64,000 nt of DNA from Alphaproteobacteria bacterium (GTDB lineage: Bacteria > Pseudomonadota > Alphaproteobacteria > CAAHEQ01 > UBA3637), in the NCBI GenBank assembly GCA_045632845.1, contig JAZQXL010000020.1, positions 35,386 through 99,385 on the forward strand, written 5' to 3'. Both the position numbers and the translations under genes were made by a program. Below are positions 6,382 to 27,864 of this stretch, one piece after another. The notes beneath the pieces are model-generated. The model was not told the DNA's origin, ran no database searches, and saw only the letters and a list, made by a program, of their open reading frames with translations. The number at the start of each line of letters is the position of its first letter. Positions within the stretch are counted from its first letter, which is position 1.

Positions 6382-7164
6382 ATGTCTATTTCAGATATCT
6401 TATTGCTTTCATTTGTTCAAAGTGCAACTGAATTTTTGCCCGTCAGTTCATCGGGCCACCTTATTTTGATGGAAAAATTTGGATTTTCTAATCAAAATTT
6501 GTTAATGGATATCTCTTTACATTTAGGAACATTGATTGCTGTTTTAGCTTTTTTTCACAAAGATATTTTAAACATTCTCAAAAATTTTTATAAAAAAAGC
6601 CAAGAACAAAAACTTCTTTTTCACTTAATCATTGCAACCATTCCAGCTTGTATTCTTGGTTATTTTTTAAATGACATCATCGAAACAACACTCAGATCAC
6701 CGCTTATTATTGCATTCACATCTATTTTTTATGGGTGTTTACTATGGATTGCAGATAAATTTTCCACGAGCAAAAAGGAAATTAAAGATATTGGAGTAAA
6801 AGAAGCTCTCATCATTGGATGCGCACAAGCACTCGCTCTTATCCCTGGCACAAGTCGTTCTGGAATCACAATGACAAGTGCTAGATTTTTAGGATTAAAC
6901 AGGGTTGACAGCGCTAAATTTTCAATGTTATTATCTATCCCTGTTATTGCTTTAGGCGCTTTTTATATGCTTTTTAAAAGCGCAAATGAAGGTATTTTAA
7001 CACCAGAAATTATATCAAATCTTTCAATAGGAATTGTTTCAGCCGGAATTTTTGGATTAGCAGCTGTTTGGTTTTTAATCCGCTGGTTAAAAACAGCCTC
7101 ATTTGCCTTATTTGCAATTTATAGAATTATCTTAGGAATTATTTTGTTCTGTATCTTTCTCTAG
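6382..7164 (+). CDS. uppP: Undecaprenyl-diphosphate phosphatase (UppP/BacA)
   Basis: RBS GGAGGAAAA upstream; motifs SSGHLIL and PGTSRSGITMTSARFLG; multi-TM. Confidence 0.8.
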   Translation: MSISDILLLSFVQSATEFLPVSSSGHLILMEKFGFSNQNLLMDISLHLGTLIAVLAFFHKDILNILKNFYKKSQEQKLLFHLIIATIPACILGYFLNDIIETTLRSPLIIAFTSIFYGCLLWIADKFSTSKKEIKDIGVKEALIIGCAQALALIPGTSRSGITMTSARFLGLNRVDSAKFSMLLSIPVIALGAFYMLFKSANEGILTPEIISNLSIGIVSAGIFGLAAVWFLIRWLKTASFALFAIYRIILGIILFCIFL

Positions 7165-7362
7165 TTTTTTCAAAAGCCAATTAAGAACAAAAACTCTTAA
7201 TGCACTTGACAAATTACCCTCACGGGACATATCAATTTTTTCAACCAACTGTTGAAGTGTTGTTTGCTCAGTTTCAGAAATCTGTTTAAGAATCTTCCAA
7301 AATTCATCTTCCATTGAAACACTGGTTGAATGTCCCATAATTACCAAAGATCTTTTTTTCAT
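7132..7362 (-). CDS. Ribbon-helix-helix protein of the RHH_4 type
   Basis: HSTSVSMEDEFWKIL...GNLSSALRVFVLNWL matches the RHH_4 pattern (HRTSVSLE.EFW..L......GNLSSAIRVFVL). Confidence 0.55.
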   Translation of the reverse strand: MKKRSLVIMGHSTSVSMEDEFWKILKQISETEQTTLQQLVEKIDMSREGNLSSALRVFVLNWLLKKLEKDTEQNNS

Positions 7363-7784
7363 TTTTTACGGTACCGATCTAAATCAATAATTTGTCCAGT
7401 TACGGCTTCATTATTTTTTTCTTTTTTAGGAAATTCGTCTTTTTGTGGCTGCAAAACAAAACCAAACTGTTGTGAAGGATCTGCAAATTGTGTAATTGCA
7501 GTATAAGGAACTTTCAATGTTGATAAAACACCCCCAAAAGCTAAATCAACACAAAAATAATCTTCATTTACAACCAAATTTTCAAATTGATATTGCAAAA
7601 CAACTGTGATTTCTTCTGGATACTTTGCTCGCACAAAATCAGGGATAACAACATCTTTTCGATCTGTTCTAAATGAAATTAAAAAATGATTCTCTGAAGA
7701 CAACCCCTCGTTTTCAACAGTCTTTAAAATATCACGAATCATATATCTTCGTGAAGCATAAAGAAATTGATTATAATCCAACAT
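7359..7784 (-). CDS. sspB: ClpXP adaptor SspB (alphaproteobacterial type)
   Basis: HHFLISFRTDRKDVVIPDFVRAKYPEEITVVLQYQFENLVVNEDYFCVDLAFGG follows the SspB-alpha pattern; RBS AGGAGAGGG upstream. Confidence 0.7.
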   Translation of the reverse strand: MLDYNQFLYASRRYMIRDILKTVENEGLSSENHFLISFRTDRKDVVIPDFVRAKYPEEITVVLQYQFENLVVNEDYFCVDLAFGGVLSTLKVPYTAITQFADPSQQFGFVLQPQKDEFPKKEKNNEAVTGQIIDLDRYRKK

Positions 7785-7795
7785 ATCCCTCTCCT

Positions 7796-8105
7796 AAAAA
7801 AAAGTGGATTTTCTGTTGCTAGGTAATCCACAAACCCCACCTAAACGCTCATATTGTCTAGGGATTGATCGTTACTTAGATACCTAAAATTAAGCAGCTA
7901 AAGCAACTGGAGCAAAATTATCATTTGCGTTTATATTATCAGCCCGATAACGGTGGTACAATACCGGATACAAGAGAAAGCCTTTATTATGCGTGTCGAT
8001 TCTATTTCACCCCCATAATAAATGGTGGAGGTGTCGGGTACTGCCCCCGAGTCCACAGACATCTATTCTGCTTTTCGTTTAGCATCATAGTCAGTTACCT
8101 GACAA
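7796..8105 (-). ncRNA. ssrA: tmRNA (ssrA), two-piece circularly permuted form. Acceptor piece ~8105..8023 ends in CCTCCACCA. An 8-nt linker follows, then the coding piece from ~8014 with tag ORF 7928..7890 and a terminator at ~7796-7831
   Basis: Minus-strand GCA AAT GAT AAT TTT GCT CCA GTT GCT TTA GCT GCT TAA encodes ANDNFAPVALAA-stop. Acceptor 3' strand CACCTCC-A-CCA pairs with GGGGGTG at the start of the coding piece. Stem TCGGG/CCCGA with a 7-nt loop sits before the 3' acceptor strand. Confidence 0.7.
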
Positions 8106-8109
8106 GTTT

Positions 8110-8138
8110 AGTATACCCTAAAATTAAACCAAGCGCAA
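8110..8138 (-). promoter_or_regulatory. Candidate sigma70 promoter for ssrA (TTGCGC, 17 nt, TATACT)
   Basis: hexamers and spacing read from the sequence; AT-rich background makes chance matches possible. Confidence 0.3.
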
Positions 8139-8141
8139 GCT

Positions 8142-9137
8142 CTATTTCTCACCTTGTTTTGACAAATCTCTTAGATTTTTTTGCATTTTAGCTTTAGATA
8201 AATACAAAACAGCAGTTGTTGCTTTTTTACCACTTTCCAAAAGTTGTTGGGCATACAACATCCTTTCTTTTACATTTGATGGCGAAATGCAAATATATTG
8301 TGGAGAGGTCAACAGATACTTCATTAAATGTCTAGCATCTGCATTTGGGTGTTGTGAAAAATAAAACACACCGTTTTCAAAGTTCTCTTGATACATTGTA
8401 ATATTTTGAATCAATGCATTTGTATCTTTACAAAAAAGTTTTGGATGTGAAAAACAAGCATCTATCCAGTCTTGTTTTTGAACACCAAATTTTTGAATAA
8501 AATCACCCATAACCGCACACTTTTGCTTTAACGTTTCAATATCTTTCACCAATATGTCTGGCATTTTTTTCAAAACAGAAACACTTTCATCAAAAGAAAC
8601 ACCATGCGATTTTGAAAAAGCAATAAAATCCATCAATTTCACATCTAGATTTTCAGGATTTATTTTTAAAACATTTGGATATTTAAAAGCCATTTTAACA
8701 AAATCAGTAATAGATACTTTATATTTTGATAAAACAATCAATCCATCATTGATGTTTTTCTTAATTTTTTTAGGCCCCCAACCCAATACCGCTCTCCCAT
8801 GAGCTGTTGAAGACATTTCGTTTAAAAAAAGCTTAGAATCAGCACCTTTTTCTTGAATAAAAGACAACAAATCATTCAATGATGCAGGTAGATACGAAAA
8901 AACAATCCCATCACTAAGCGTATTGTACATATCTTCTTTTGAAACACCACAATCAGAAAAAATCTTTTCAAACAAAGAAAAACGTTCTTGAATATTCACC
9001 CGCAAAAACGGTAAAGATTCTTCTTTTTCTTTTTGACGGACATTCAAAAGTTTCAAAATCTGTTCCTTTGAAAAACCAACAGTTTTAAAATCTTCAACAA
9101 TCTTATTCAAAATCTTTTTTTTATCTTGATTTTCCAT
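8142..9137 (-). CDS. Paralog 1 of a three-gene tandem family with ~35-aa helical repeats containing a PxLL core (mTERF-like solenoid); unknown function
   Basis: Repeated motifs such as KYPNVLKINPENL, SHPKLFCKDTNALIQ; N-terminus GFSKEQILKLL shared with paralogs 2 and 3. Confidence 0.5.
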   Translation of the reverse strand: MENQDKKKILNKIVEDFKTVGFSKEQILKLLNVRQKEKEESLPFLRVNIQERFSLFEKIFSDCGVSKEDMYNTLSDGIVFSYLPASLNDLLSFIQEKGADSKLFLNEMSSTAHGRAVLGWGPKKIKKNINDGLIVLSKYKVSITDFVKMAFKYPNVLKINPENLDVKLMDFIAFSKSHGVSFDESVSVLKKMPDILVKDIETLKQKCAVMGDFIQKFGVQKQDWIDACFSHPKLFCKDTNALIQNITMYQENFENGVFYFSQHPNADARHLMKYLLTSPQYICISPSNVKERMLYAQQLLESGKKATTAVLYLSKAKMQKNLRDLSKQGEK

Positions 9138-10098
9138 GGGTCATCCTTGATTGAAACAACATTTTTCTTTTTTCAGTCCAAAAACTTTCTGGTGCATTTT
9201 TCAAATCTTCCAAAATAGCTCTTTCTGTTTTATAAAGAGCCATTTTTTGAGCTTTACCCTTTGTTTCTTTAATATATTTGGCATAAAGTCTTTTTAATTT
9301 TAAAGCCTCAAGACTATAAACCAAAACAAATGGTTTTTTGAGCAAATATTCTTGTAAATAAGCTTCATGTTTAACCCCTGCATCATCAACACGAATCAAA
9401 TCATCTTCATACATTTTTTTTAAAAAATTGTACTTTTGCTGCATCAATTTTGGATCAGCATATAACAAAGATGGGAACCTCTCAAAAGAAGTTAGTAAAC
9501 AAGAATTATCCGTCCAAAAAATCTGAGACAATTCATTCACTTTTTTTACAATTGTGTTTGGGTTAGCTGATAAAAGCTCAGGAGCTTTTAATGCCAAACG
9601 AATCCAAATATCTTGAGGAACACCCAATTCTCTTGAACAAGCTTGAATACCACTTTCAATCAAATGTGCACTCTTTTGCAAAATGCTTGGTTTTCGAACA
9701 GCGATACCTTTCCATTCATCCATAGATAAACCTAACACATTCGCCTGTAATTCAATGTTCCTTTTAACCCGCGCAAGAGGAATTGTAAAAATATTCGGTG
9801 TGTTCCAAAAAAGCTTAAAACAGGCACTAGGGTCCATCTCAAAAAAACGACTTACAACCTTTAAATTTCGTTCAATATATTCTGGGGTATATCCAAAAAA
9901 ACGAGGTGTTTTTCTTAACTTTATAATACTTTCTTTTCTTGTTTTTTTGTATGTTGAAAACAAATTTACAAAACCATTAATCCGATCTGTAATTTGTGTT
10001 TGAGCAAAAGGATTTTCAGCGCTGCGTAAATTAATAATCCGCATCGCTTCTTCAGCTGTAAAACCATTTTTTTCAAACTCTTTAATAATTTCTTGCAT
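9121..10098 (-). CDS. Paralog 2 of the PxLL-repeat family; start placed at the ATG overlapping the upstream stop (TAATG), because the track start at 10155 is a TTG
   Basis: Repeats RKTPRFFGYTPEYIERNLKVV / WNTPNIFTIPLARVKRNIELQ / VRKPSILQKSAHLIESGIQ / LKAPELLSANPNTIVKKVNEL / ERFPSLLYADPKLMQQKYNFL. Confidence 0.5.
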   Translation of the reverse strand: MQEIIKEFEKNGFTAEEAMRIINLRSAENPFAQTQITDRINGFVNLFSTYKKTRKESIIKLRKTPRFFGYTPEYIERNLKVVSRFFEMDPSACFKLFWNTPNIFTIPLARVKRNIELQANVLGLSMDEWKGIAVRKPSILQKSAHLIESGIQACSRELGVPQDIWIRLALKAPELLSANPNTIVKKVNELSQIFWTDNSCLLTSFERFPSLLYADPKLMQQKYNFLKKMYEDDLIRVDDAGVKHEAYLQEYLLKKPFVLVYSLEALKLKRLYAKYIKETKGKAQKMALYKTERAILEDLKNAPESFWTEKRKMLFQSRMTHGKSR

Positions 10099-11300
10099 TA
10101 CTTCCCTTTTTGATTTTTTAAATACGCTTGAAAAAGAGCTGGATTTTTCTTCCAAAAATCATCTGGAACATTTTTTAAATCTTCCATAATTTTGCTTGAC
10201 CGTTTCCATATTGGTGCCTTAGATGAAACCCCTTGATTTTCTTTTATCCATAAGCCATAAGCACGCCTTACTTCCAAAGATTGCATGCTGGGAACAAGCA
10301 TTTCTTTTGCATTTTTTAAAATATGATTTTTTAATAAATTTAAATCTTTTTTTGCTTCATTTCCAAGACAAAAAGCATCATCTAAATACATCTGTTTATA
10401 AAAATCATATTTTTGTTTAATCGAGTTAGGCGCACACAAAAATAAAGTAGGCATTTTCAAAAATGAAGTGATAATTGTTTTTGAATCTGTAGAAAATATA
10501 TCTGCAACTTTTGAAACATTAGAATGGATTCTATCAGGCGCTACTTGCAACAACGAGGGAGCAAATAAATACATTTTGCAAATATCTTCTTTTGGCAAAT
10601 TAAAATATTTTGTCCCAGCATCTATTTTTTCAATCAAATTTTGATCTGAATAACTCAACAATGAAGGTGCTTTCAAAAATGATTTTTGAACATCATCTTT
10701 TGACACATCAAAATCTTCTGATATCTTTTGTATGAGATTTAAAACCGTTTCTGGATTTCTGGTTAATATATTTGGAAACTCCTTAAATAATTTTGAAAAA
10801 TCAGTTTCATCTAAATTTAAACCTTTTTTTAAAAGTGTTACGTTTTTCATCACATATTCAGGAGAAAAAGCAAGCAATGTAGGATGCTTCAAACTTTTTT
10901 CTAAAAAAACAGCGGGTTCAACACCAACAATTTCAGCATTTTTAATTAAATTTGAAAAAAGTCCCTCAGGTTTTCTGGTTAACAAATTAGGCTGTTTAAC
11001 AAGAATTGAAACAAGTTTTTCTGGTTCTATTTTCAAAAGTTTTGCATTTTGAAGTAGGTTTTTCCTCAACATTGGTAAAGAGGTTGTTAACAATAAGCGA
11101 GGCTCTTTTACAATCGCTTTTTTTGCCACATTTTTAGAAACTGAAAATTCATCAAAAAACAAAAAAAGATCATCTATCTTCTTTGATATTTCTGTTTTTG
11201 AAAAAGGATTTACCTTTGTCTTCATCCAAAAATCAATAACTTTAGATGCCTCATCCTTTGAAAAACCAGCGTTTAAAAATGTGTCAACAACTTCACTCAT
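10098..11300 (-). CDS. Paralog 3 of the PxLL-repeat family (400 aa); its start overlaps the rlmB stop (ATGA)
   Basis: Repeats VKEPRLLLTTSLPMLRKNLL / VKQPNLLTRKPEGLFSNLIKN / LKHPTLLAFSPEYVMKNVTLL / FKEFPNILTRNPETVLNLIQKI / LKAPSLLSYSDQNLIEKIDAG. Confidence 0.5.
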   Translation of the reverse strand: MSEVVDTFLNAGFSKDEASKVIDFWMKTKVNPFSKTEISKKIDDLFLFFDEFSVSKNVAKKAIVKEPRLLLTTSLPMLRKNLLQNAKLLKIEPEKLVSILVKQPNLLTRKPEGLFSNLIKNAEIVGVEPAVFLEKSLKHPTLLAFSPEYVMKNVTLLKKGLNLDETDFSKLFKEFPNILTRNPETVLNLIQKISEDFDVSKDDVQKSFLKAPSLLSYSDQNLIEKIDAGTKYFNLPKEDICKMYLFAPSLLQVAPDRIHSNVSKVADIFSTDSKTIITSFLKMPTLFLCAPNSIKQKYDFYKQMYLDDAFCLGNEAKKDLNLLKNHILKNAKEMLVPSMQSLEVRRAYGLWIKENQGVSSKAPIWKRSSKIMEDLKNVPDDFWKKNPALFQAYLKNQKGK

Positions 11301-21243: not shown

Positions 21244-21564
21244 CTAATATAAATCAATCCCTTTTCCTAATTCTATGTCAAAAACAGTTTGATTTGTGTT
21301 GAGATCATTTTTTGAGTTAGGCTTTAGGATTTTTATTGACTTAATTTCAAATATCATTTTTTCAGGATTTTTTCTATATGCTTTTTGAAATTCAACATAA
21401 GAATATTTATTGGCTACAGACAATCGCTTAATCCAATAGTCTTTACACTCTCGATATTCATGTGTTTTTACACCGGCTTTAATCTTTTCAAACCAGATAT
21501 CTTTCAAAACTAATTTTAAAGTGTTAGACATTATTAAGAACTTTTCTTGAATAGAGTGTCCCAT
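21244..21564 (-). CDS. Small PUA-like (ASCH-type) domain protein, overlapping the 3' end of the methyltransferase gene
   Basis: LKLVLKDIWFEKIKAGVKTHEYRE resembles the ASCH N-terminal beta-barrel signature (W/F-E-x-I-x-x-G-x-K-T-x-E-x-R); weak. Confidence 0.4.
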   Translation of the reverse strand: MGHSIQEKFLIMSNTLKLVLKDIWFEKIKAGVKTHEYRECKDYWIKRLSVANKYSYVEFQKAYRKNPEKMIFEIKSIKILKPNSKNDLNTNQTVFDIELGKGIDLY

Positions 21565-22751
21565 AATTCTGAAATGTGCTTTGCTACGTTATAAGCCAAT
21601 AGAGGTGGAACCGCATTACCTATAATCTTATATGCAGCAGAAGCACTTAATACATTTGGCTTTACAAACTCATATTCATCAGGAAAAGTCTGTATTCTTG
21701 CGCATTCTCTAACAGTTAATCTTCTTTCAGATAGTCCTTTTTTTAACTCTTTTTCATGCTTTCCACCATGATCTTTTGACAATCTTCTGAATTCGATATT
21801 GCCGTGATGTTCTGCACGAATTGTAGGACCTAATCCTTTTAAATTGATTTCAGTATTTCCTTGACCTTTTTGCATATACTTTGCTTTCGAATATGCTTTT
21901 TGAGCAAAATCATCTGACGATGAAGGTTCCGGCAAATCTCTTAATATTTCTTCTACGGATACCAAAGGAAGTAAGTCTTTATTGTCAAACAAAGTGCTTT
22001 TTTGATAAATATTATGTGTAATCGGTGGATATAAATTTATTTCTTTTTTTTCAATCTTCTCAAGAACTCCTGGATTTAAAGCAGCTTTATTTAACCCTAT
22101 AAAAATAATTCTTTCTCGTTTTTGTGGCACACCATATTCGCCAGCATTTAATACTTTTGCAGGGAATACGTAGTAGCCATCCTTATCAATCGACGAAAAA
22201 TCTGATTCTATAATCTTTTTTGCCTCGCCCAAAGAAACCAATCCTTTTACATTTTCTGCAAAAAATATCTTGGGTTTTACGATTTCTATAACTTCTTTCA
22301 TCCACATATATAAACAACCACGATTTTCGTAAGTAGGTATATCGATATCTTTCTTTCCTAAGTGGTTTTTTTGAGAGTTAAATCCATTACGCTTACCTGC
22401 TAAACTAAAATCTTGACAGGGAAAACCTCCCGTGAGAATATCTATATCATTTGGAAACACTCTTTCGCCAGACTTATGTTGTTTAACCAAATCAACGATA
22501 CTTTCTGTTCTATAAGTTGTTTTTTTATCCTTAAAATATAACTTCCATGCAGTAGCAGCTTCTTTTAGTATGTCATTACTAAAAGTAGTGGTAAAACCCG
22601 TTGGAGCTAATAAAACTCTTTTGCCAGATTTCTTTTTTATCCAGTCAGGATGTATTACGGTGTTTACGCTACTTTCATGTACATAGAAATCACCCTCGAA
22701 ACCAATGTCCATACCGCCGCATCCACTGAATAATGATAATACTTTTTTCAT
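21534..22751 (-). CDS. DNA (cytosine-5)-methyltransferase, Dcm family (type II R-M methylase)
   Basis: Motif I FSGCGGMDIGF, motif IV GGFPCQDFSLAG, motif VI FFAENVKGL, motif VIII QKRERIIFIG, motif X GNAVPPLLA; RBS AAGGGAG. Confidence 0.9.
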   Translation of the reverse strand: MKKVLSLFSGCGGMDIGFEGDFYVHESSVNTVIHPDWIKKKSGKRVLLAPTGFTTTFSNDILKEAATAWKLYFKDKKTTYRTESIVDLVKQHKSGERVFPNDIDILTGGFPCQDFSLAGKRNGFNSQKNHLGKKDIDIPTYENRGCLYMWMKEVIEIVKPKIFFAENVKGLVSLGEAKKIIESDFSSIDKDGYYVFPAKVLNAGEYGVPQKRERIIFIGLNKAALNPGVLEKIEKKEINLYPPITHNIYQKSTLFDNKDLLPLVSVEEILRDLPEPSSSDDFAQKAYSKAKYMQKGQGNTEINLKGLGPTIRAEHHGNIEFRRLSKDHGGKHEKELKKGLSERRLTVRECARIQTFPDEYEFVKPNVLSASAAYKIIGNAVPPLLAYNVAKHISELWDTLFKKSS

Positions 22752-22814
22752 TTTACTCCCTTGCTTTATTTAATTCTTCATGCTATACTTAATAACAACT
22801 TTGGAGAATATAAT

Positions 22815-23918
22815 ATGGCAGATATACGCACAAACCTAAGAGAACTTTCAGTTGCGTTTCCGTTTTGTTCAGATATAACGATAGAACAGATTTCCCCTCA
22901 AGCTTTTAAATCTATATGCGAAAACAATATACAAAATTTTAATTCTAATGTAAACAAAATTTCAAAAAATCCCAAAAAATTTTCTTTAGATGAAATAAGT
23001 ATCATAAAAAAAGGCTTTGATCTAGGTCTTTCCTTAAAGAAGATACTCAAACTAGACACTATAGGAAATACAATCGTATGGCTTGGAAATTCAAAAGATG
23101 ATTTAATAGACTTAAAGATAAATGAACATGCGATTTCATTGAAAGAAAAGTCCAACATCCTACGAAACATAGGATTATATCAATTATTAAACTTTACTAC
23201 AAACACAAATAAATTTGAAAGAGGATTAAATATTTTTAAATATTTTGCTCCAGAAGAATTAAATAATTGGTATCACTATGCAATTTTATCTTTAAAAACA
23301 TTAAAAAATTTTTCATATAAAAGCGAAAAAGGATATACATCAACAGCATTCTTTAAAGAAGATTCCTTATTTTTAAGTTTCAACGAAACAGAAGAAATTG
23401 TTAAAAATTCATCTACATCATCTTATTCGGATTTTGAGAAAATAACCTCTGCGACAATAAGAGAAAAAGTTTTTTCAAAATGGTTAAAACAAATTCCAAC
23501 TAAAAGTGATTACTACAAATTTAAAACCATTTGTGCTCAAAAGGCAGGGAATAATCTTTTAAACTTCGTAAAAACAAATTTAGTGGCAACTTCCCCGTCT
23601 GTTCTGAATTTTTTTAATTTAGAAAGTTTTAGCTATATTTATGCAAAAAATGATGGAAAGCAAATAAAAATATTTAAAGTCCCCTCTCTTAATGAAATAG
23701 ATTTTAATGATTATAAAATAGTAAGAGTTGATGTTGATATCCCCAACTCTCAGCTAAATTTTAAAACAACTATACAAAACATCAAAACAGATTCATGCTG
23801 TGTATTGCGTAATGAGATTCGATATTCGCACGGACAGTTAAATGGCACTCCCGAAGCCAAGTTATACTATGACTCTGGTGATGGACTTGAAAAACTAATC
23901 TATAAAAAATTATCCTAA
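22815..23918 (+). CDS. Candidate restriction endonuclease partner (unknown family), divergently transcribed from the C5-MTase with a 63-bp intergenic gap
   Basis: position and divergent orientation only; extremely AT-rich, N/K-rich protein; RBS GGAGAA; no nuclease motif identified. Confidence 0.35.
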   Translation: MADIRTNLRELSVAFPFCSDITIEQISPQAFKSICENNIQNFNSNVNKISKNPKKFSLDEISIIKKGFDLGLSLKKILKLDTIGNTIVWLGNSKDDLIDLKINEHAISLKEKSNILRNIGLYQLLNFTTNTNKFERGLNIFKYFAPEELNNWYHYAILSLKTLKNFSYKSEKGYTSTAFFKEDSLFLSFNETEEIVKNSSTSSYSDFEKITSATIREKVFSKWLKQIPTKSDYYKFKTICAQKAGNNLLNFVKTNLVATSPSVLNFFNLESFSYIYAKNDGKQIKIFKVPSLNEIDFNDYKIVRVDVDIPNSQLNFKTTIQNIKTDSCCVLRNEIRYSHGQLNGTPEAKLYYDSGDGLEKLIYKKLS

Positions 23919-24140
23919 ATTCTTCTGAGTTAACTTTAGAAACGGTGTATTTTCATTTTTCCTGATTTCTATGTACTCAGGTAAGATTTATGTCTAGCCT
24001 TCTTTTTTTAAAAAGACTTCTTGCTCCACATATACAAAGGTTAAAGTAAGAGCCGAGCCCTAAGGGCAGGAAGTTGTGTTTGGCAAATTTTAACCTTTAC
24101 CTACACACATACAAAAGTTCAATGGATAAAACACTCTTTG

Positions 24141-24208
24141 CGATTAACTGACATTGATGTCACTTAATGAAACACAACTTCGGTTTTGATAAAATCGAGG
24201 TTAATTTT
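24141..24208. repeat. Right copy of the ~70-bp imperfect direct repeat flanking the R-M cassette; contains the perfect inverted repeat TGACA-ttga-TGTCA
   Basis: cgattaactgacattgatgtcacttaat...aacttcggttttgataaaatcgaggttaatt. Confidence 0.5.
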
Positions 24209-24279
24209 CTTAGCCTTTCAAAATAATAATAAAAAAATTTTCTAACAACAGTTCAAAAGGAATAAAAAAATTGTTATCC

Positions 24280-25392
24280 TCATTTTTTTGTTAAAAAATT
24301 AACAATCGGCTTATTAAATAGGTGTATAACAACTATTGAAAACAACAAACCAACCCCTAAAACAAAACCAAGTTCAGCAATCCAATCTAAAACAGGTATT
24401 TGAAAATTAAAATTCAGATTATCAGCATAAATATCTATCAAATAAAACTGGAACAAATAAATTCCCCAAGAATACCGTCCAACAATTTGAACAAACTTGT
24501 TGCACAAAAATTGATTTTGAACCAGCATTTGAGAAACAATCAATAATGAAAATATCAATGCCCAAACCGTATGTTTATTAATCAAAAATAAATTGTATGT
24601 ATCGTAAAAATTAAAACACATTAATTCAAAACAAACAATCAACAAAAAATATGAAATTATTTGTTTCCCTGGCACCTTTGAAAGATTTATCTTTTGAAAT
24701 ATATAATATAAAAAAATACCTAAAATCAAAGTTGGAAAATGTTCTATAAAGCAAAAATCAGAGATATAAGAATTATATACCTTCTCATCTAACGAATCAG
24801 AAAAAGGTTTTAATCGAAACAAAAACTCATTAAGATAATAAACCACAGGACTAGACAAAGCAAACAAAAAAAGCGCCTTAAAAACTGAATTAACATATTT
24901 GAATAAAAAAGGAATTAATAATGTAAATATCGCCAATACACCAACAAACCATTCTACATACAAAATACTGTTACTATAACGGGGAAAAAAACCATGAACA
25001 AAAAATAAATGCGTCAAAAAATTCGAAATCGTTATGTTTGTTTCGCTCCCCAACCATATAGATTGTTTCTCATAAAAAAAACCAACACAAACAGCCACAT
25101 AAAATAATGGAATTAAAAAACAAAATCTATTTTTTATCCATTTTAGACAAGAAACAAAAGAATATTGATTTTTTTTAAAATAAAAACTCAAACTATTATA
25201 GGACAAAAATACCGAAATCAAAAAAAACAAAACAACCCCACACCAACCTGCTCTGACAATTCCTAAAAGCAATTGGGGTAAATCTAATTCAGCACCTGTG
25301 TGTACCATAAGAACAAACAGCATTGCATAGCCTTTTAATGCATCTGCCCATATCAATCTTTTTGAATTAAAAGCCGTTATCTCTTTTTCCAT
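24280..25392 (-). CDS. Membrane acyltransferase, family 3 (OafA/O-acetylase-like)
   Basis: ~10 TM segments; N-terminal ADALKGYAMLFVLMVHTG pattern typical of the acyltransferase_3 family. Confidence 0.55.
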   Translation of the reverse strand: MEKEITAFNSKRLIWADALKGYAMLFVLMVHTGAELDLPQLLLGIVRAGWCGVVLFFLISVFLSYNSLSFYFKKNQYSFVSCLKWIKNRFCFLIPLFYVAVCVGFFYEKQSIWLGSETNITISNFLTHLFFVHGFFPRYSNSILYVEWFVGVLAIFTLLIPFLFKYVNSVFKALFLFALSSPVVYYLNEFLFRLKPFSDSLDEKVYNSYISDFCFIEHFPTLILGIFLYYIFQKINLSKVPGKQIISYFLLIVCFELMCFNFYDTYNLFLINKHTVWALIFSLLIVSQMLVQNQFLCNKFVQIVGRYSWGIYLFQFYLIDIYADNLNFNFQIPVLDWIAELGFVLGVGLLFSIVVIHLFNKPIVNFLTKK

Positions 25393-25606
25393 TTATACCC
25401 CATAAAAAACTTAACATATTGTCTTTTAAAATAAATAGTAATTTATGCATCACATTATGTCAATTAAAACAAAGAAATTTATTTTTTTGTTTTAAACAAT
25501 CTATACATCACTCGATTAACCTAACCAACAAAGAATATTCTCTTAAAGATTTTTCACCATCACTCTCATTCTATTTCCTAGATTTAAACATTTTATTGTA
25601 AAAACA

Positions 25607-25635
25607 TTGACAAAATCTCATTCTTATGATAATAT
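25607..25635 (+). promoter_or_regulatory. Near-consensus sigma70 promoter (TTGACA, 17 nt, TAATAT) 28 nt upstream of the 25663 gene, followed by RBS AAAGGAGAGA
   Basis: read directly from the sequence. Confidence 0.4.
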
Positions 25636-25662
25636 ATAAGAAATCAATTCAAAGGAGAGAAA

Positions 25663-27036
25663 ATGAAGAGTCCAGTTTTATACAATTTGTCTGAAATAAA
25701 AGAGCTTTATGATGCCTTTAAAGAATATGTTAGAACAAAAGGATTTTATGAGGAGTGTATGGACTCTTTAAAAAAATACAACACCTCCTTTTTTAAACTG
25801 ATTGTCAAAAGTAATCAGACAAAAAAACTATTCAAGGTAAGAAAAAACGACTTTTTAGGAAAAAGCACCATCGGTGCAAACAATACCCTATCTAAACCAA
25901 CAATTGAAGATGCTCATTTTTATCGTGCTTGGGTTAAAAACAATCCTACTCAAGATTTAATCCCAACAAAAATCACGTTTAAAAAAAGGTACATCAATCT
26001 ACTTGGAAACACGGATCAATCTTTTGATAATGTCCGCATTTTTATATCCCCAAATGCGCTAATTTTGCCCAAAACAGAAGATAAAAGACCACTTAAAGAA
26101 ATACCAACACAAAATCCTCATGCAATTGAAGAATTGGTCTATTTAGCTGAAGCTTATGATGAATTTATTTTTTCATACAAAGGGTCTAAAAATCAGAAAA
26201 ATTTTGATGAATTTTTTAAAAATAACTTTTTAACCAAAGTTATCCCTCCTTATTTTCGCCAATCCATGGCTGAACCAATTATTAAAATTGTTGAACAAAC
26301 AAGACGCTTGTTAACACAAACATTGTTACAAAATTTTGAACCACAAATAACGGCAAGACAAAATTTATTAAACAATACAGATACTCCTGAAGTTTTTCTA
26401 AAAAACAACAGAAATGAAGTTTTTATCCTCTCAGAACAAGTTGGCGTTATTGATAACGCTCAAAAATTAATCAAACTTCATGATTTAAGAGACGACTTGG
26501 CACATCCAGATACAGAAATGGACATTCTTGTTGATGTTCCTGAAAATGTAAATGAAATTTATGAAACTGTTTTTAACATGATTCGTCGCATCACAACAAC
26601 CAAAAATTTAACAGTTCAAAAAGTAACAAACACAAACGATTCAAATGACCTCACTCCTTTTGTTTTGTGGGCACAAGGCCATAAAGTTAAAGATCACATC
26701 CCAGTTATTGAAAAGAACAAAGACATTGAAACGCCAACATTAATTCACACAATGCAATGTTTGGATATGGCTGTCAAAAGCGCTGCGCCAATTAGTTCAA
26801 ACGGAAAACCTTTAAAAGGGAAAAAACAACGCGACTGGCTTATTAAAGAAGGAATAATGGACCAATCTGATCAACAAGATTATGAAGCAGCAAAACATTT
26901 AAGAAATGCTGTATGCCATGGAAATGCAAATACACAAACACATATGGATATCATTGCGAAAAATGAAACATCACAAAAATTAACTCAAAAAATCATCAAC
27001 AATATGACTCAAAAAGGTCTATTGCAAAAATCATAA
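25663..27036 (+). CDS. Hypothetical 457-aa protein with two HEPN-like Rx4H motifs (LRDDLAH near residue 276, HLRNAVCHGN near residue 415)
   Basis: motif-level only; no other recognisable domain. Confidence 0.35.
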   Translation: MKSPVLYNLSEIKELYDAFKEYVRTKGFYEECMDSLKKYNTSFFKLIVKSNQTKKLFKVRKNDFLGKSTIGANNTLSKPTIEDAHFYRAWVKNNPTQDLIPTKITFKKRYINLLGNTDQSFDNVRIFISPNALILPKTEDKRPLKEIPTQNPHAIEELVYLAEAYDEFIFSYKGSKNQKNFDEFFKNNFLTKVIPPYFRQSMAEPIIKIVEQTRRLLTQTLLQNFEPQITARQNLLNNTDTPEVFLKNNRNEVFILSEQVGVIDNAQKLIKLHDLRDDLAHPDTEMDILVDVPENVNEIYETVFNMIRRITTTKNLTVQKVTNTNDSNDLTPFVLWAQGHKVKDHIPVIEKNKDIETPTLIHTMQCLDMAVKSAAPISSNGKPLKGKKQRDWLIKEGIMDQSDQQDYEAAKHLRNAVCHGNANTQTHMDIIAKNETSQKLTQKIINNMTQKGLLQKS

Positions 27037-27189
27037 CACCTCTTGCACAAAAAAAAATACGCATCATCCTGCCAACAAGCGAGGTAAACTCATGCTCATA
27101 TAAACACAAAAAAAACATTGCGTTTAGTATTCAAAACACTCAATATAACATATAGATTATCATTCATATTCATAATAAATGGGGTAATT

Positions 27190-27780
27190 ATGAAAAAAAT
27201 CTTATTTTCCATTTTATTTTCTTGTGTGTTTTTATGCAACACAACTCAAGCTCAAGTCGTTTCTAACGAAGAAATAAACCCAACCAAACTTGAAAACGCA
27301 AAAAAAATTATTTTGCAATTACAAGCGGAAATGAAAGACTATATCTCAAACGGGTCAGGGCCTTTTTTAGCTGCTGTGATTGATGAAAATAGAAAAATCG
27401 TTTCCAAAACCGCCAACAGTGTTGTATCGGAAGGTTGCAGTAATAATCATGCAGAAATGAATGCCATTAAAATGGCTCAAAAAAACTTAGGAACCTATGA
27501 TTTATCAAAACATAACTTAAGCTTATATGTTACGTCTGAACCTTGCATGATGTGTATTGGGGGCATTATGTGGTCAGGCATCAAATCCGTGTATTATGGT
27601 GTTCCTTCAAAACGAGTTGAAGAAATCACAGGTTTTGATGAAGGATTTAAACCAAATTGGTTTGAAGAATTTAAAAACAGAGGAATTGTCGTTTATGGTA
27701 ACATTGAAATAGAAGAAGGTGAAAAAGTACTGCATAATTATGTAGACACGGGCAAAACAGTGTACCAACCAGAACGATAA
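27190..27780 (+). CDS. CDA-fold zinc deaminase resembling guanine deaminase GuaD / TadA, with an N-terminal Sec-type signal peptide (predicted to be exported)
   Basis: MKKILFSILFSCVFLCNTTQA-QV signal peptide; GPFLAAVID, HAEMNAI and EPCMMCIGG zinc-binding motifs parallel to GuaD (GPFGAVIV / HAEVTAI / EPCPMCLGA). The track start at 27118 is a TTG, so it is rejected. Confidence 0.65.
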   Translation: MKKILFSILFSCVFLCNTTQAQVVSNEEINPTKLENAKKIILQLQAEMKDYISNGSGPFLAAVIDENRKIVSKTANSVVSEGCSNNHAEMNAIKMAQKNLGTYDLSKHNLSLYVTSEPCMMCIGGIMWSGIKSVYYGVPSKRVEEITGFDEGFKPNWFEEFKNRGIVVYGNIEIEEGEKVLHNYVDTGKTVYQPER

Positions 27781-27802
27781 TCAAAAAATTATTCATCAAA
27801 AC

Positions 27803-27832
27803 AAAACGCTCCTTAAAAGGAGCGTTTTTTGA
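27803..27832. terminator. Intrinsic terminator (AAAACGCTCCTT-AAAA-GGAGCGTTTT) between the deaminase and the GNAT gene, bidirectional
   Basis: hairpin plus flanking A/T runs. Confidence 0.5.
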
Positions 27833-27864
27833 TTGATAAAAAATAACAGTAAACAGATTAAATT

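Follow-up and report, generated by a model that had tools for sequence, protein, structure and literature searches.

Two-piece tmRNAs encoded by circularly permuted genes have been described in several bacterial groups, and the prototype is the ssrA gene of Caulobacter crescentus (Keiler, Shapiro & Williams 2000, as cited in PMC3985003). In these systems the permuted precursor is cut and its pieces stay paired; the RNA is alanylated and acts in SmpB-dependent rescue, and degradation proceeds through ClpXP with SspB (PMC3985003). Other permuted tmRNAs occur in a group of beta-proteobacteria and in some cyanobacteria (Sharkady & Williams 2004, as cited in PMC3985003). All three elements, a two-piece tmRNA, its permuted gene and an SspB adaptor of the alpha type, belong to textbook knowledge (PMC3985003; PMC8138137).

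The E. coli-type one-piece tmRNA (Rfam RF00023) resembles the locus described here in function: its tRNA-like domain is charged with alanine for trans-translation, and its tag ends in LAA and is recognised by ClpXP with the aid of SspB. In contrast, the E. coli ssrA gene is unpermuted and yields a single RNA with four pseudoknots. The gamma-type sspB gene sits in an sspA-sspB operon and is unlinked to ssrA. SspB-alpha is reportedly the Caulobacter ClpXP adaptor for tmRNA-tagged proteins, in work attributed to Lessner et al. and to Chien et al., both of 2007; the former are also said to have located sspB-alpha beside ssrA.

Here we describe a tmRNA locus on the minus strand of a 64-kb stretch of DNA (referred to as the window; positions are counted from its first letter). 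The locus is almost certainly the ssrA gene of an uncultured, low-GC alphaproteobacterium, with a permuted precursor that gives rise to a two-piece tmRNA and is followed by an alpha-type sspB gene. The host is probably a gut-associated, low-GC alphaproteobacterium. All parts of this arrangement are already known, and the locus is an ordinary member of its family.

Identification of the permuted tmRNA gene

The first-pass annotation, which was made from the sequence alone, had read this region as a two-piece, circularly permuted tmRNA. Both detection methods were strongly positive. ARAGORN reported a permuted tmRNA (flagged 'tmRNA*') at 7799-8116 on the minus strand, with the tag ANDNFAPVALAA. 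The Rfam model alpha_tmRNA (RF01849) matched 7801-8142 of the same strand with 243.6 bits (E 1.7e-69) against a gathering score of 50, and this match covered model positions 1-355 of 355 without truncation. A second model, tmRNA_permuted (RF04321), scored 146.7 bits at the same locus. The permutation, the alanine identity elements, the inter-piece helices and the tag frame that define RF01849 are all present, and the agreement of the locus with the tmRNA models is far above chance. A canonical one-piece tmRNA was also looked for, and RF00023 gave no match at its gathering score anywhere in the 64-kb window; a second tmRNA was not returned there by any other tmRNA model.

Integration into tmRNA genes is common, and partial copies of these genes occur. 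This general knowledge, together with the fact that the visible portion of the genome amounts to 64 kb, gives some room to the reading that the locus is a decayed or duplicated remnant, left for example by an island integrated in ssrA, with the functional tmRNA elsewhere. Such a remnant is very improbable, given the untruncated coverage of the model, the intact tag frame, G3·U70 pair, CCA and helices, and the recurrence of the same arrangement with near-identical sequence in 7 related metagenomic contigs. No flanking integrase or repeat was seen.

The ORF list places a different feature at this position, namely an 88-aa ORF with a TTG start on the plus strand (7925..8191), antisense to the tmRNA. 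A real gene here, with the tmRNA features as incidental, would be consistent with the presence of 88 codons behind that start, but its probability is negligible. The predicted protein has no Pfam match, and in the related contigs its stop-free stretch shortens from 95 to 67 and then to 45 aa with the DNA nearly unchanged. Insertions and deletions in the part of this ORF that overlaps the tmRNA linker are not multiples of three, substitutions are compensatory in the RNA stems, and the opposite strand carries the covariance-model match with E 1.7e-69. The ORF was therefore rejected as an artefact antisense to a constrained RNA gene, in line with its first description as spurious.

The tmRNA had further been called unannotated. 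This is accurate for the ORF track, from which the gene is missing; more generally the term is too strong, since any RNA-aware pipeline detects the gene at once. The value of the locus lies in this correction of the annotation, with little importance beyond it: an ORF-only track mislabels an RNA gene of a universal, essential pathway as an 88-aa hypothetical protein, and a permuted tmRNA can be recognised from raw sequence alone.

Organization of the precursor and its predicted pieces

The predicted primary transcript (pre-tmRNA) occupies 7796..8104 on the minus strand, as supported by Rfam, ARAGORN and the predicted fold. It would extend from a start near 8104-8102, placed from the position of the -10 element, to the end of a U-run. 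Along the minus strand, the T arm, the acceptor 3' strand and the CCA precede the acceptor 5' strand and the tag. The coordinates and the ARAGORN flag agree in this permuted order of acceptor piece and coding piece, which is the order originally proposed.

The acceptor piece (8023..8104, minus strand, approximately 80-82 nt) was delimited by the Rfam structure line, the coordinates and covariation. It opens with a leader (5') hairpin of 5 bp at 8103-8090, followed by the 5' strands of the P2 helices at 8086-8082, 8076-8070, 8061-8059 and 8056-8054. The T arm (UCGGG-GGCAGUA-CCCGA) lies at 8050-8034 and the acceptor 3' strand, CACCUCC, at 8033-8027. These are followed by the discriminator A8026 (A73) and an encoded CCA at 8025-8023. 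The tRNA-like 3' end that had been noticed about 95 nt before the tag, with its T arm and CACCUCC-A-CCA, is thus found at 8050-8023, and the distance from CCA to the resume codon GCA is 95 nt.

Behind the CCA lies the linker UUUAUUAU (8015..8022, minus strand), an 8-nt segment that is variable between invariant flanks and is predicted to be excised. The coding piece (7796..8014, minus strand, approximately 212-219 nt) runs from the acceptor 5' strand to the U-run. Its acceptor 5' strand, GGGGGUG, is located at 8014-8008. The claim that this motif stands 8 nt past the CCA and pairs with CACCUCC was checked directly: the strands form a 7-bp stem whose third position is a wobble between G8012 and U8029 (G3·U70). 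The G3·U70 pair, A73 and the 7-bp acceptor stem together provide the alanine identity elements. The lengths of the two predicted pieces correspond to the RNA species of about 80 and about 210 nt that had been anticipated.

Downstream in the coding piece are the P2 3' strands (7995-7990, 7981-7974 and 7971-7967) and the first stem of pseudoknot 1 (7966-7963 with 7954-7951), which is marked by a compensatory change in relatives. The tag frame spans 7890..7928 on the minus strand and consists of the codons GCA AAT GAT AAT TTT GCT CCA GTT GCT TTA GCT GCT TAA. Translation and ARAGORN both give ANDNFAPVALAA followed by a stop, as first read. The remainder of the coding piece carries the 3' domain, the terminal hairpin and the U-run. 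A possible 3' pseudoknot, seen by eye only, would pair UAGGU at 7843-7839 with the loop sequence ACCUA at 7824-7820.

The locus has the gene order of the alphaproteobacterial tmRNAs of RF01849: an acceptor piece that encodes its CCA comes first, a linker second, and a coding piece opening with GGGG third. The G3·U70 stem and the inter-piece P2 helices are likewise in common, the tag follows the ANDN...ALAA pattern, the 3' loop is the conserved ACCuaGCAACAGAA, and the predicted pieces, of about 80 nt and about 215 nt, have the usual size. There is no difference in kind. The differences in degree are a higher AT content (the RNA has 40% GC, in a genome of 33% GC), a U8 run after the 3' hairpin that many GC-rich relatives lack, and a short linker, which at 8 nt stands at the low end of a range that reaches about 45 nt, with a hairpin, in other lineages. 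The permuted tmRNAs of beta-proteobacteria and cyanobacteria resemble it in their circular permutation and two-piece mature form, but they represent independent permutations with separate Rfam models, and the window best fits the alpha model. The related loci all come from Alphaproteobacteria.

Covariation and conservation of the RNA

The Rfam structure line was mapped to the window, and an alignment was built from the window and 42 other alphaproteobacterial tmRNAs (n=43). Across the 35 base pairs of this structure, 94.3% of the cells were standard-paired, compared with 41-48% when the 3' partners were slid by 1-3 columns. Both-sided changes were observed in 22 of the 35 pairs among the 43 tmRNAs, including pairs in the inter-piece P2 helices, and the observed covariation score was reached by none of 500 shuffles. 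The helices were 95-100% paired, except for the middle P2 helix at 77.9%. The inter-piece P2 helices 2-5 comprise 18 pairs, 14 of which showed both-sided changes, and they were 78-99.5% paired. The U·G at acceptor position 3 was retained in 42 of the 43 tmRNAs. A free-energy fold of 7796-8104, computed with no prior, recovered the leader hairpin, P2, the T arm, the acceptor stem and the 3' hairpin.

Linker length in the 43-sequence alignment ranges from 4 to about 45 nt. As a side observation, two of the distant loci (L003 and L018) have a linker of only 4 nt, next to the 8 nt found here, and elsewhere the linker is often 30-45 nt long and contains an inverted repeat.

Close relatives were represented by 7 metagenomic contigs whose SspB proteins are 65-97% identical to that of the window. 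In these contigs the parts of the mature RNA are nearly invariant, even where SspB identity is 65-81%, and the tag frame is identical throughout. The few substitutions that occur are compensatory changes in stems: a C-to-U with a G-to-A in the leader hairpin, T7963C with A7954G in the first stem of pseudoknot 1, and an A-to-G with a U-to-C in the 3' hairpin of one relative (L087). Within the RNA-coding span, length (6-10 nt) and sequence both vary in the linker and in no other segment; it lies between invariant flanks, which is the signature of a spacer removed at maturation. More widely, the tags of 59 alphaproteobacterial loci begin with ANDN in 56 cases and end with AA in all 59.

Promoter and 3' end of ssrA

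Candidate promoter elements were identified upstream of the acceptor piece on the minus strand. The putative -35 element, TTGCGC, is located at 8133..8138 and the putative -10 element, TATACT, at 8110..8115. In the 7 relatives CTTGC is kept at the former position and TATACT or TATAAT at the latter, and the 17-nt spacer between them varies in sequence and is constant in length. The sequence further upstream is variable, with the hexamers conserved, and this pattern forms a phylogenetic footprint. The -35 region aligns with the conserved 'CUU' that opens the RF01849 model; the TATA is nearly invariant in 43 diverse alphaproteobacteria and aligns with UAUAUU in the RF01849 consensus.

At the other end, the coding piece terminates in the hairpin GUGGAUU-ACCUAGCAACAGAA-AAUCCAC at 7831-7804 on the minus strand, which folds with 7 bp and a 14-nt loop and is directly followed by a U8 run at 7803-7796. 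In the tmRNA this hairpin forms the conserved 3' helix, and its loop is conserved in RF01849. The energy of the stem is weak, at -5.6 to -7.2 kcal/mol, and the fold of the 3' end alone does not exceed shuffled sequence in stability (z = 0.32), so that a terminator claim cannot rest on stability. A role of the hairpin and the U8 run as a weak intrinsic terminator is plausible from the sequence.

A generic scan for sigma-70 promoters and intrinsic terminators across 7200-8700 returned neither a promoter nor a terminator for ssrA. The promoter was missed because the candidate -35 is weak, matching the consensus at 3 of 6 positions, and the terminator because a 14-nt loop falls outside the rules of the scan. 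The proposal that the gene has its own promoter and terminator can accordingly be followed in part. The footprint supports the promoter; the terminator is a weak hairpin that doubles as the conserved tmRNA 3' helix, and the generic scan is negative for both.

The sspB gene and its downstream neighbour

The next gene on the minus strand is sspB, as had been stated. It extends over 7784-7359 with an ATG at 7784 and encodes a protein of 141 aa. The U-run is followed without a gap by the sspB Shine-Dalgarno sequence, AGGAG (7795-7791), and the ATG lies 11 nt past that run. Residues 13-126 match Pfam PF04386 with 107 bits (E 1.2e-30, cut-off 27). The nearest solved structures in the PDB are 2QAS and 2QAZ ('SspB protein'), which we take to be structures of Caulobacter SspB-alpha, with 71.6 bits and E 6e-19 (approximately 1e-18) over about 104 residues. 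The gamma-type NCBIfam equivalogs (PRK11798) were missed by a wide margin, the scores being 22.5 bits (cut-off 198) and 16.1 bits (cut-off 135), and the protein was assigned to the alpha type and not to the E. coli type.

Similar to Caulobacter SspB-alpha, the protein consists of a folded domain and a conserved, basic C-terminal tail joined by a variable linker. Among 20 homologues the tail follows the pattern (I/V)IxLxxxR(K/R)K after the variable linker; I133, L135 and R139 are invariant or nearly so, and the sequence ends in RKK. This tail presumably binds the ClpX N-domain, as we assume from work on Caulobacter SspB-alpha. The match to the Caulobacter protein is moderate only (71.6 bits over about 104 residues), and binding of tag and ClpX is predicted for the protein of the window. 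Its action on the tag would fit, indirectly, with the conserved linkage to ssrA and the conserved ANDN start of the tag. An exact-match look-up of the protein gave no record. Its closest relatives are metagenomic proteins with 97% identity; the best species-representative genome reaches 50%.

A ribbon-helix-helix gene of the RHH_4 family (PF13467, 85.8 bits) follows at 7132..7362 on the minus strand, and its start overlaps the sspB stop by 4 nt. Every close relative has this gene directly 3' of sspB, and so do 19 of the 80 distant alphaproteobacterial loci; 13 more of the 80 carry it within 3 kb on the same strand. It probably shares an operon with sspB and may belong to the ssrA-sspB unit as its third member.

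Linkage of ssrA and sspB across Alphaproteobacteria

The synteny scan used one genome per species and yielded 80 alphaproteobacterial sspB loci (L001-L080). A same-strand permuted tmRNA was observed upstream of sspB in 68 of them, 59 detected by ARAGORN and 9 added by Rfam, several of the latter being cut by contig ends. In 11 of the 80 loci no upstream tmRNA was found; the Rfam search covered all but one of the loci without an ARAGORN hit. The gap between tmRNA and sspB has a median of 59 nt and is at most 42 nt in about half of the loci. Within the set of 59, the tmRNA lies no more than 600 nt from sspB in 53 loci and 1.5-2.5 kb away in the other 6. Lineages with this linkage include Acetobacteraceae, Azospirillaceae, Parvibaculaceae, Rhodospirillales, MAGs labelled 'Rickettsiales' and gut lineages.

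The linkage of ssrA and sspB is an ancestral and widespread alphaproteobacterial synteny and not peculiar to this genome. With sspB immediately 3' of ssrA, the window resembles other SspB-alpha loci, and its adjacency is not special, given its occurrence in 68 of 80 loci. The first-pass annotation had pointed to a tight physical linkage of tag and adaptor genes; with the sspB ATG 11 nt past the U-run this holds true, and it is the standard arrangement. A full-text literature search returned no relevant statement on ssrA-sspB adjacency.

A run of at least four T after the tmRNA 3' hairpin was present in only 23 of the 59 loci. In GC-rich lineages sspB begins 20-60 nt after the tmRNA, with neither a T-run nor a recognisable intrinsic terminator in between. 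The missing T-runs suggest a tmRNA-sspB co-transcript in which the tmRNA 3' end is made by processing.

Four contigs with an alpha-type sspB (L023, L041, L064 and L069) come from MAGs labelled Thermoanaerobaculia, Bacteroidaceae, Patescibacteria and Polarisedimenticolia, and L041 additionally has an alphaproteobacterial permuted tmRNA. These contigs are most likely binning contaminants.

mTERF genes and other features of the window

Directly upstream of ssrA are three tandem, overlapping paralogues on the minus strand (8142-11300), at 8142..9137, 9121..10155 and 10098..11300. All three are mTERF-fold ORFs scoring above the gathering score of Pfam mTERF (PF02536). The paralogues are 21-31% identical to each other and hence anciently diverged. 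An AlphaFold model of the largest ORF had a mean pLDDT of 87.5, and its top structure matches in the PDB were exclusively mTERF proteins, with human MTERF1 first (probability 1.0, TM-scores 0.45-0.62). A profile search returned 1239 clusters at E<=1e-3 and 413 at E<=1e-10, including one Candidatus Moranbacteria protein. mTERFs have been stated to be absent from prokaryotes (2026 paper, PMC12977773). A bacterial, alphaproteobacterial family with the mTERF fold may be relevant to how the eukaryotic organellar mTERFs arose, and this trio is probably more interesting than the tmRNA locus itself. The mTERF genes adjoin ssrA in close relatives. We considered them as a possible part of the tmRNA system and rejected this, as none of the 80 distant ssrA-sspB loci has them in its flanks.

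At the far end of the window, a dnaA gene with Bac_DnaA domains is encoded at 58402-59889 on the plus strand. An exoribonuclease of the RNase R/II type, with RNB, S1 and cold-shock domains, is encoded at 61042-63168 on the same strand. Trans-translation is known to involve RNase R, although this gene and ssrA are about 53 kb apart. The GC skew weakens or flips its sign around 58-62 kb, and for this reason a replication origin may lie near that region. The stretch from about 22000 to 34000 has the lowest GC content, 28-31% compared with 33% for the window overall. It contains a C-5 cytosine DNA methylase (21534-22751) and several large ORFs without a Pfam match, among them those at 28515-32189 (1224 aa), 22761-23918 and 25663-27036. 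This stretch may be a horizontally acquired island.

Proposed processing and function

The steps of processing, charging, tagging and degradation were taken from established knowledge of the family and fitted to features seen directly in the sequence. Transcription would start about 7 nt after TATACT. RNase P would cleave 5' of G8014, and the 8-nt linker would be lost by 3' trimming as far as the encoded CCA. This would leave an acceptor piece of about 81 nt and a coding piece of about 215 nt, held together by the acceptor stem and the P2 helices. AlaRS is expected to charge the RNA through G3·U70 and A73, and together with SmpB the tmRNA would then enter stalled ribosomes, where translation would resume at GCA and add ANDNFAPVALAA. 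SspB would bind the N-terminal ANDN of the tag and tether the substrate to ClpX, which would recognise the C-terminal LAA for degradation by ClpXP. Neither smpB nor clpP was found in the 64-kb window.

Expression of sspB

The close spacing at the 3' end of ssrA bears on how sspB is expressed. The sequence suggests, with a probability that we would place at about even or slightly lower, that sspB is expressed from the ssrA promoter by read-through of the weak 3' hairpin. This reading is based on three features. The 11-nt gap leaves no room for a promoter; a generic scan of the minus strand across 7800-8140 returned no sigma-70-like site within ssrA; and in many GC-rich relatives sspB is located 20-60 nt downstream with no T-run.

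Alternatively, the tmRNA may be genuine and sspB an independent unit, with inherited synteny, efficient termination at the hairpin and U8 run, and an sspB promoter lying within the 3' part of ssrA. The U8 run after the hairpin does look like an intrinsic terminator. Moreover, the tmRNA lies 1.5-2.5 kb away in 6 of 59 loci and is absent upstream in 11 of 80, which indicates that the two genes can work apart. Against this stand the 11 nt between U-run and ATG, with the Shine-Dalgarno sequence abutting the U-run, the negative sigma-70 scan of 7800-8140 on the minus strand, and a weak hairpin with a 14-nt loop. The GC-rich alphaproteobacteria without a T-run, with sspB 20-60 nt on, and the occurrence of T>=4 in only 23 of 59 loci point in the same direction. 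We regard an independent sspB as possible, at somewhat less than an even chance.

Read-through from ssrA, if it occurs, would couple the supply of the adaptor to the transcription of ssrA. The survey supports, without proving, co-transcription of a stable RNA with the mRNA of the adaptor that reads its tag, as the linkage is seen in 68 of 80 loci. Extending this, we tentatively propose, as an idea we hold to be somewhat less probable than its opposite, that here and in many Alphaproteobacteria sspB lacks a dedicated promoter and is produced solely as a 3' extension of the tmRNA precursor. The idea draws on the layout of the genes, namely the Shine-Dalgarno sequence next to the U-run, the gap of at most 42 nt in about half of the loci and the lack of a T-run ahead of sspB in most GC-rich relatives. 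The 3' helix would then have two roles, being the mature end of the tmRNA and also a site of leaky termination or of processing by which the level of adaptor mRNA is set. If sspB is indeed only such an extension, one promoter would couple tag and adaptor at a fixed ratio.
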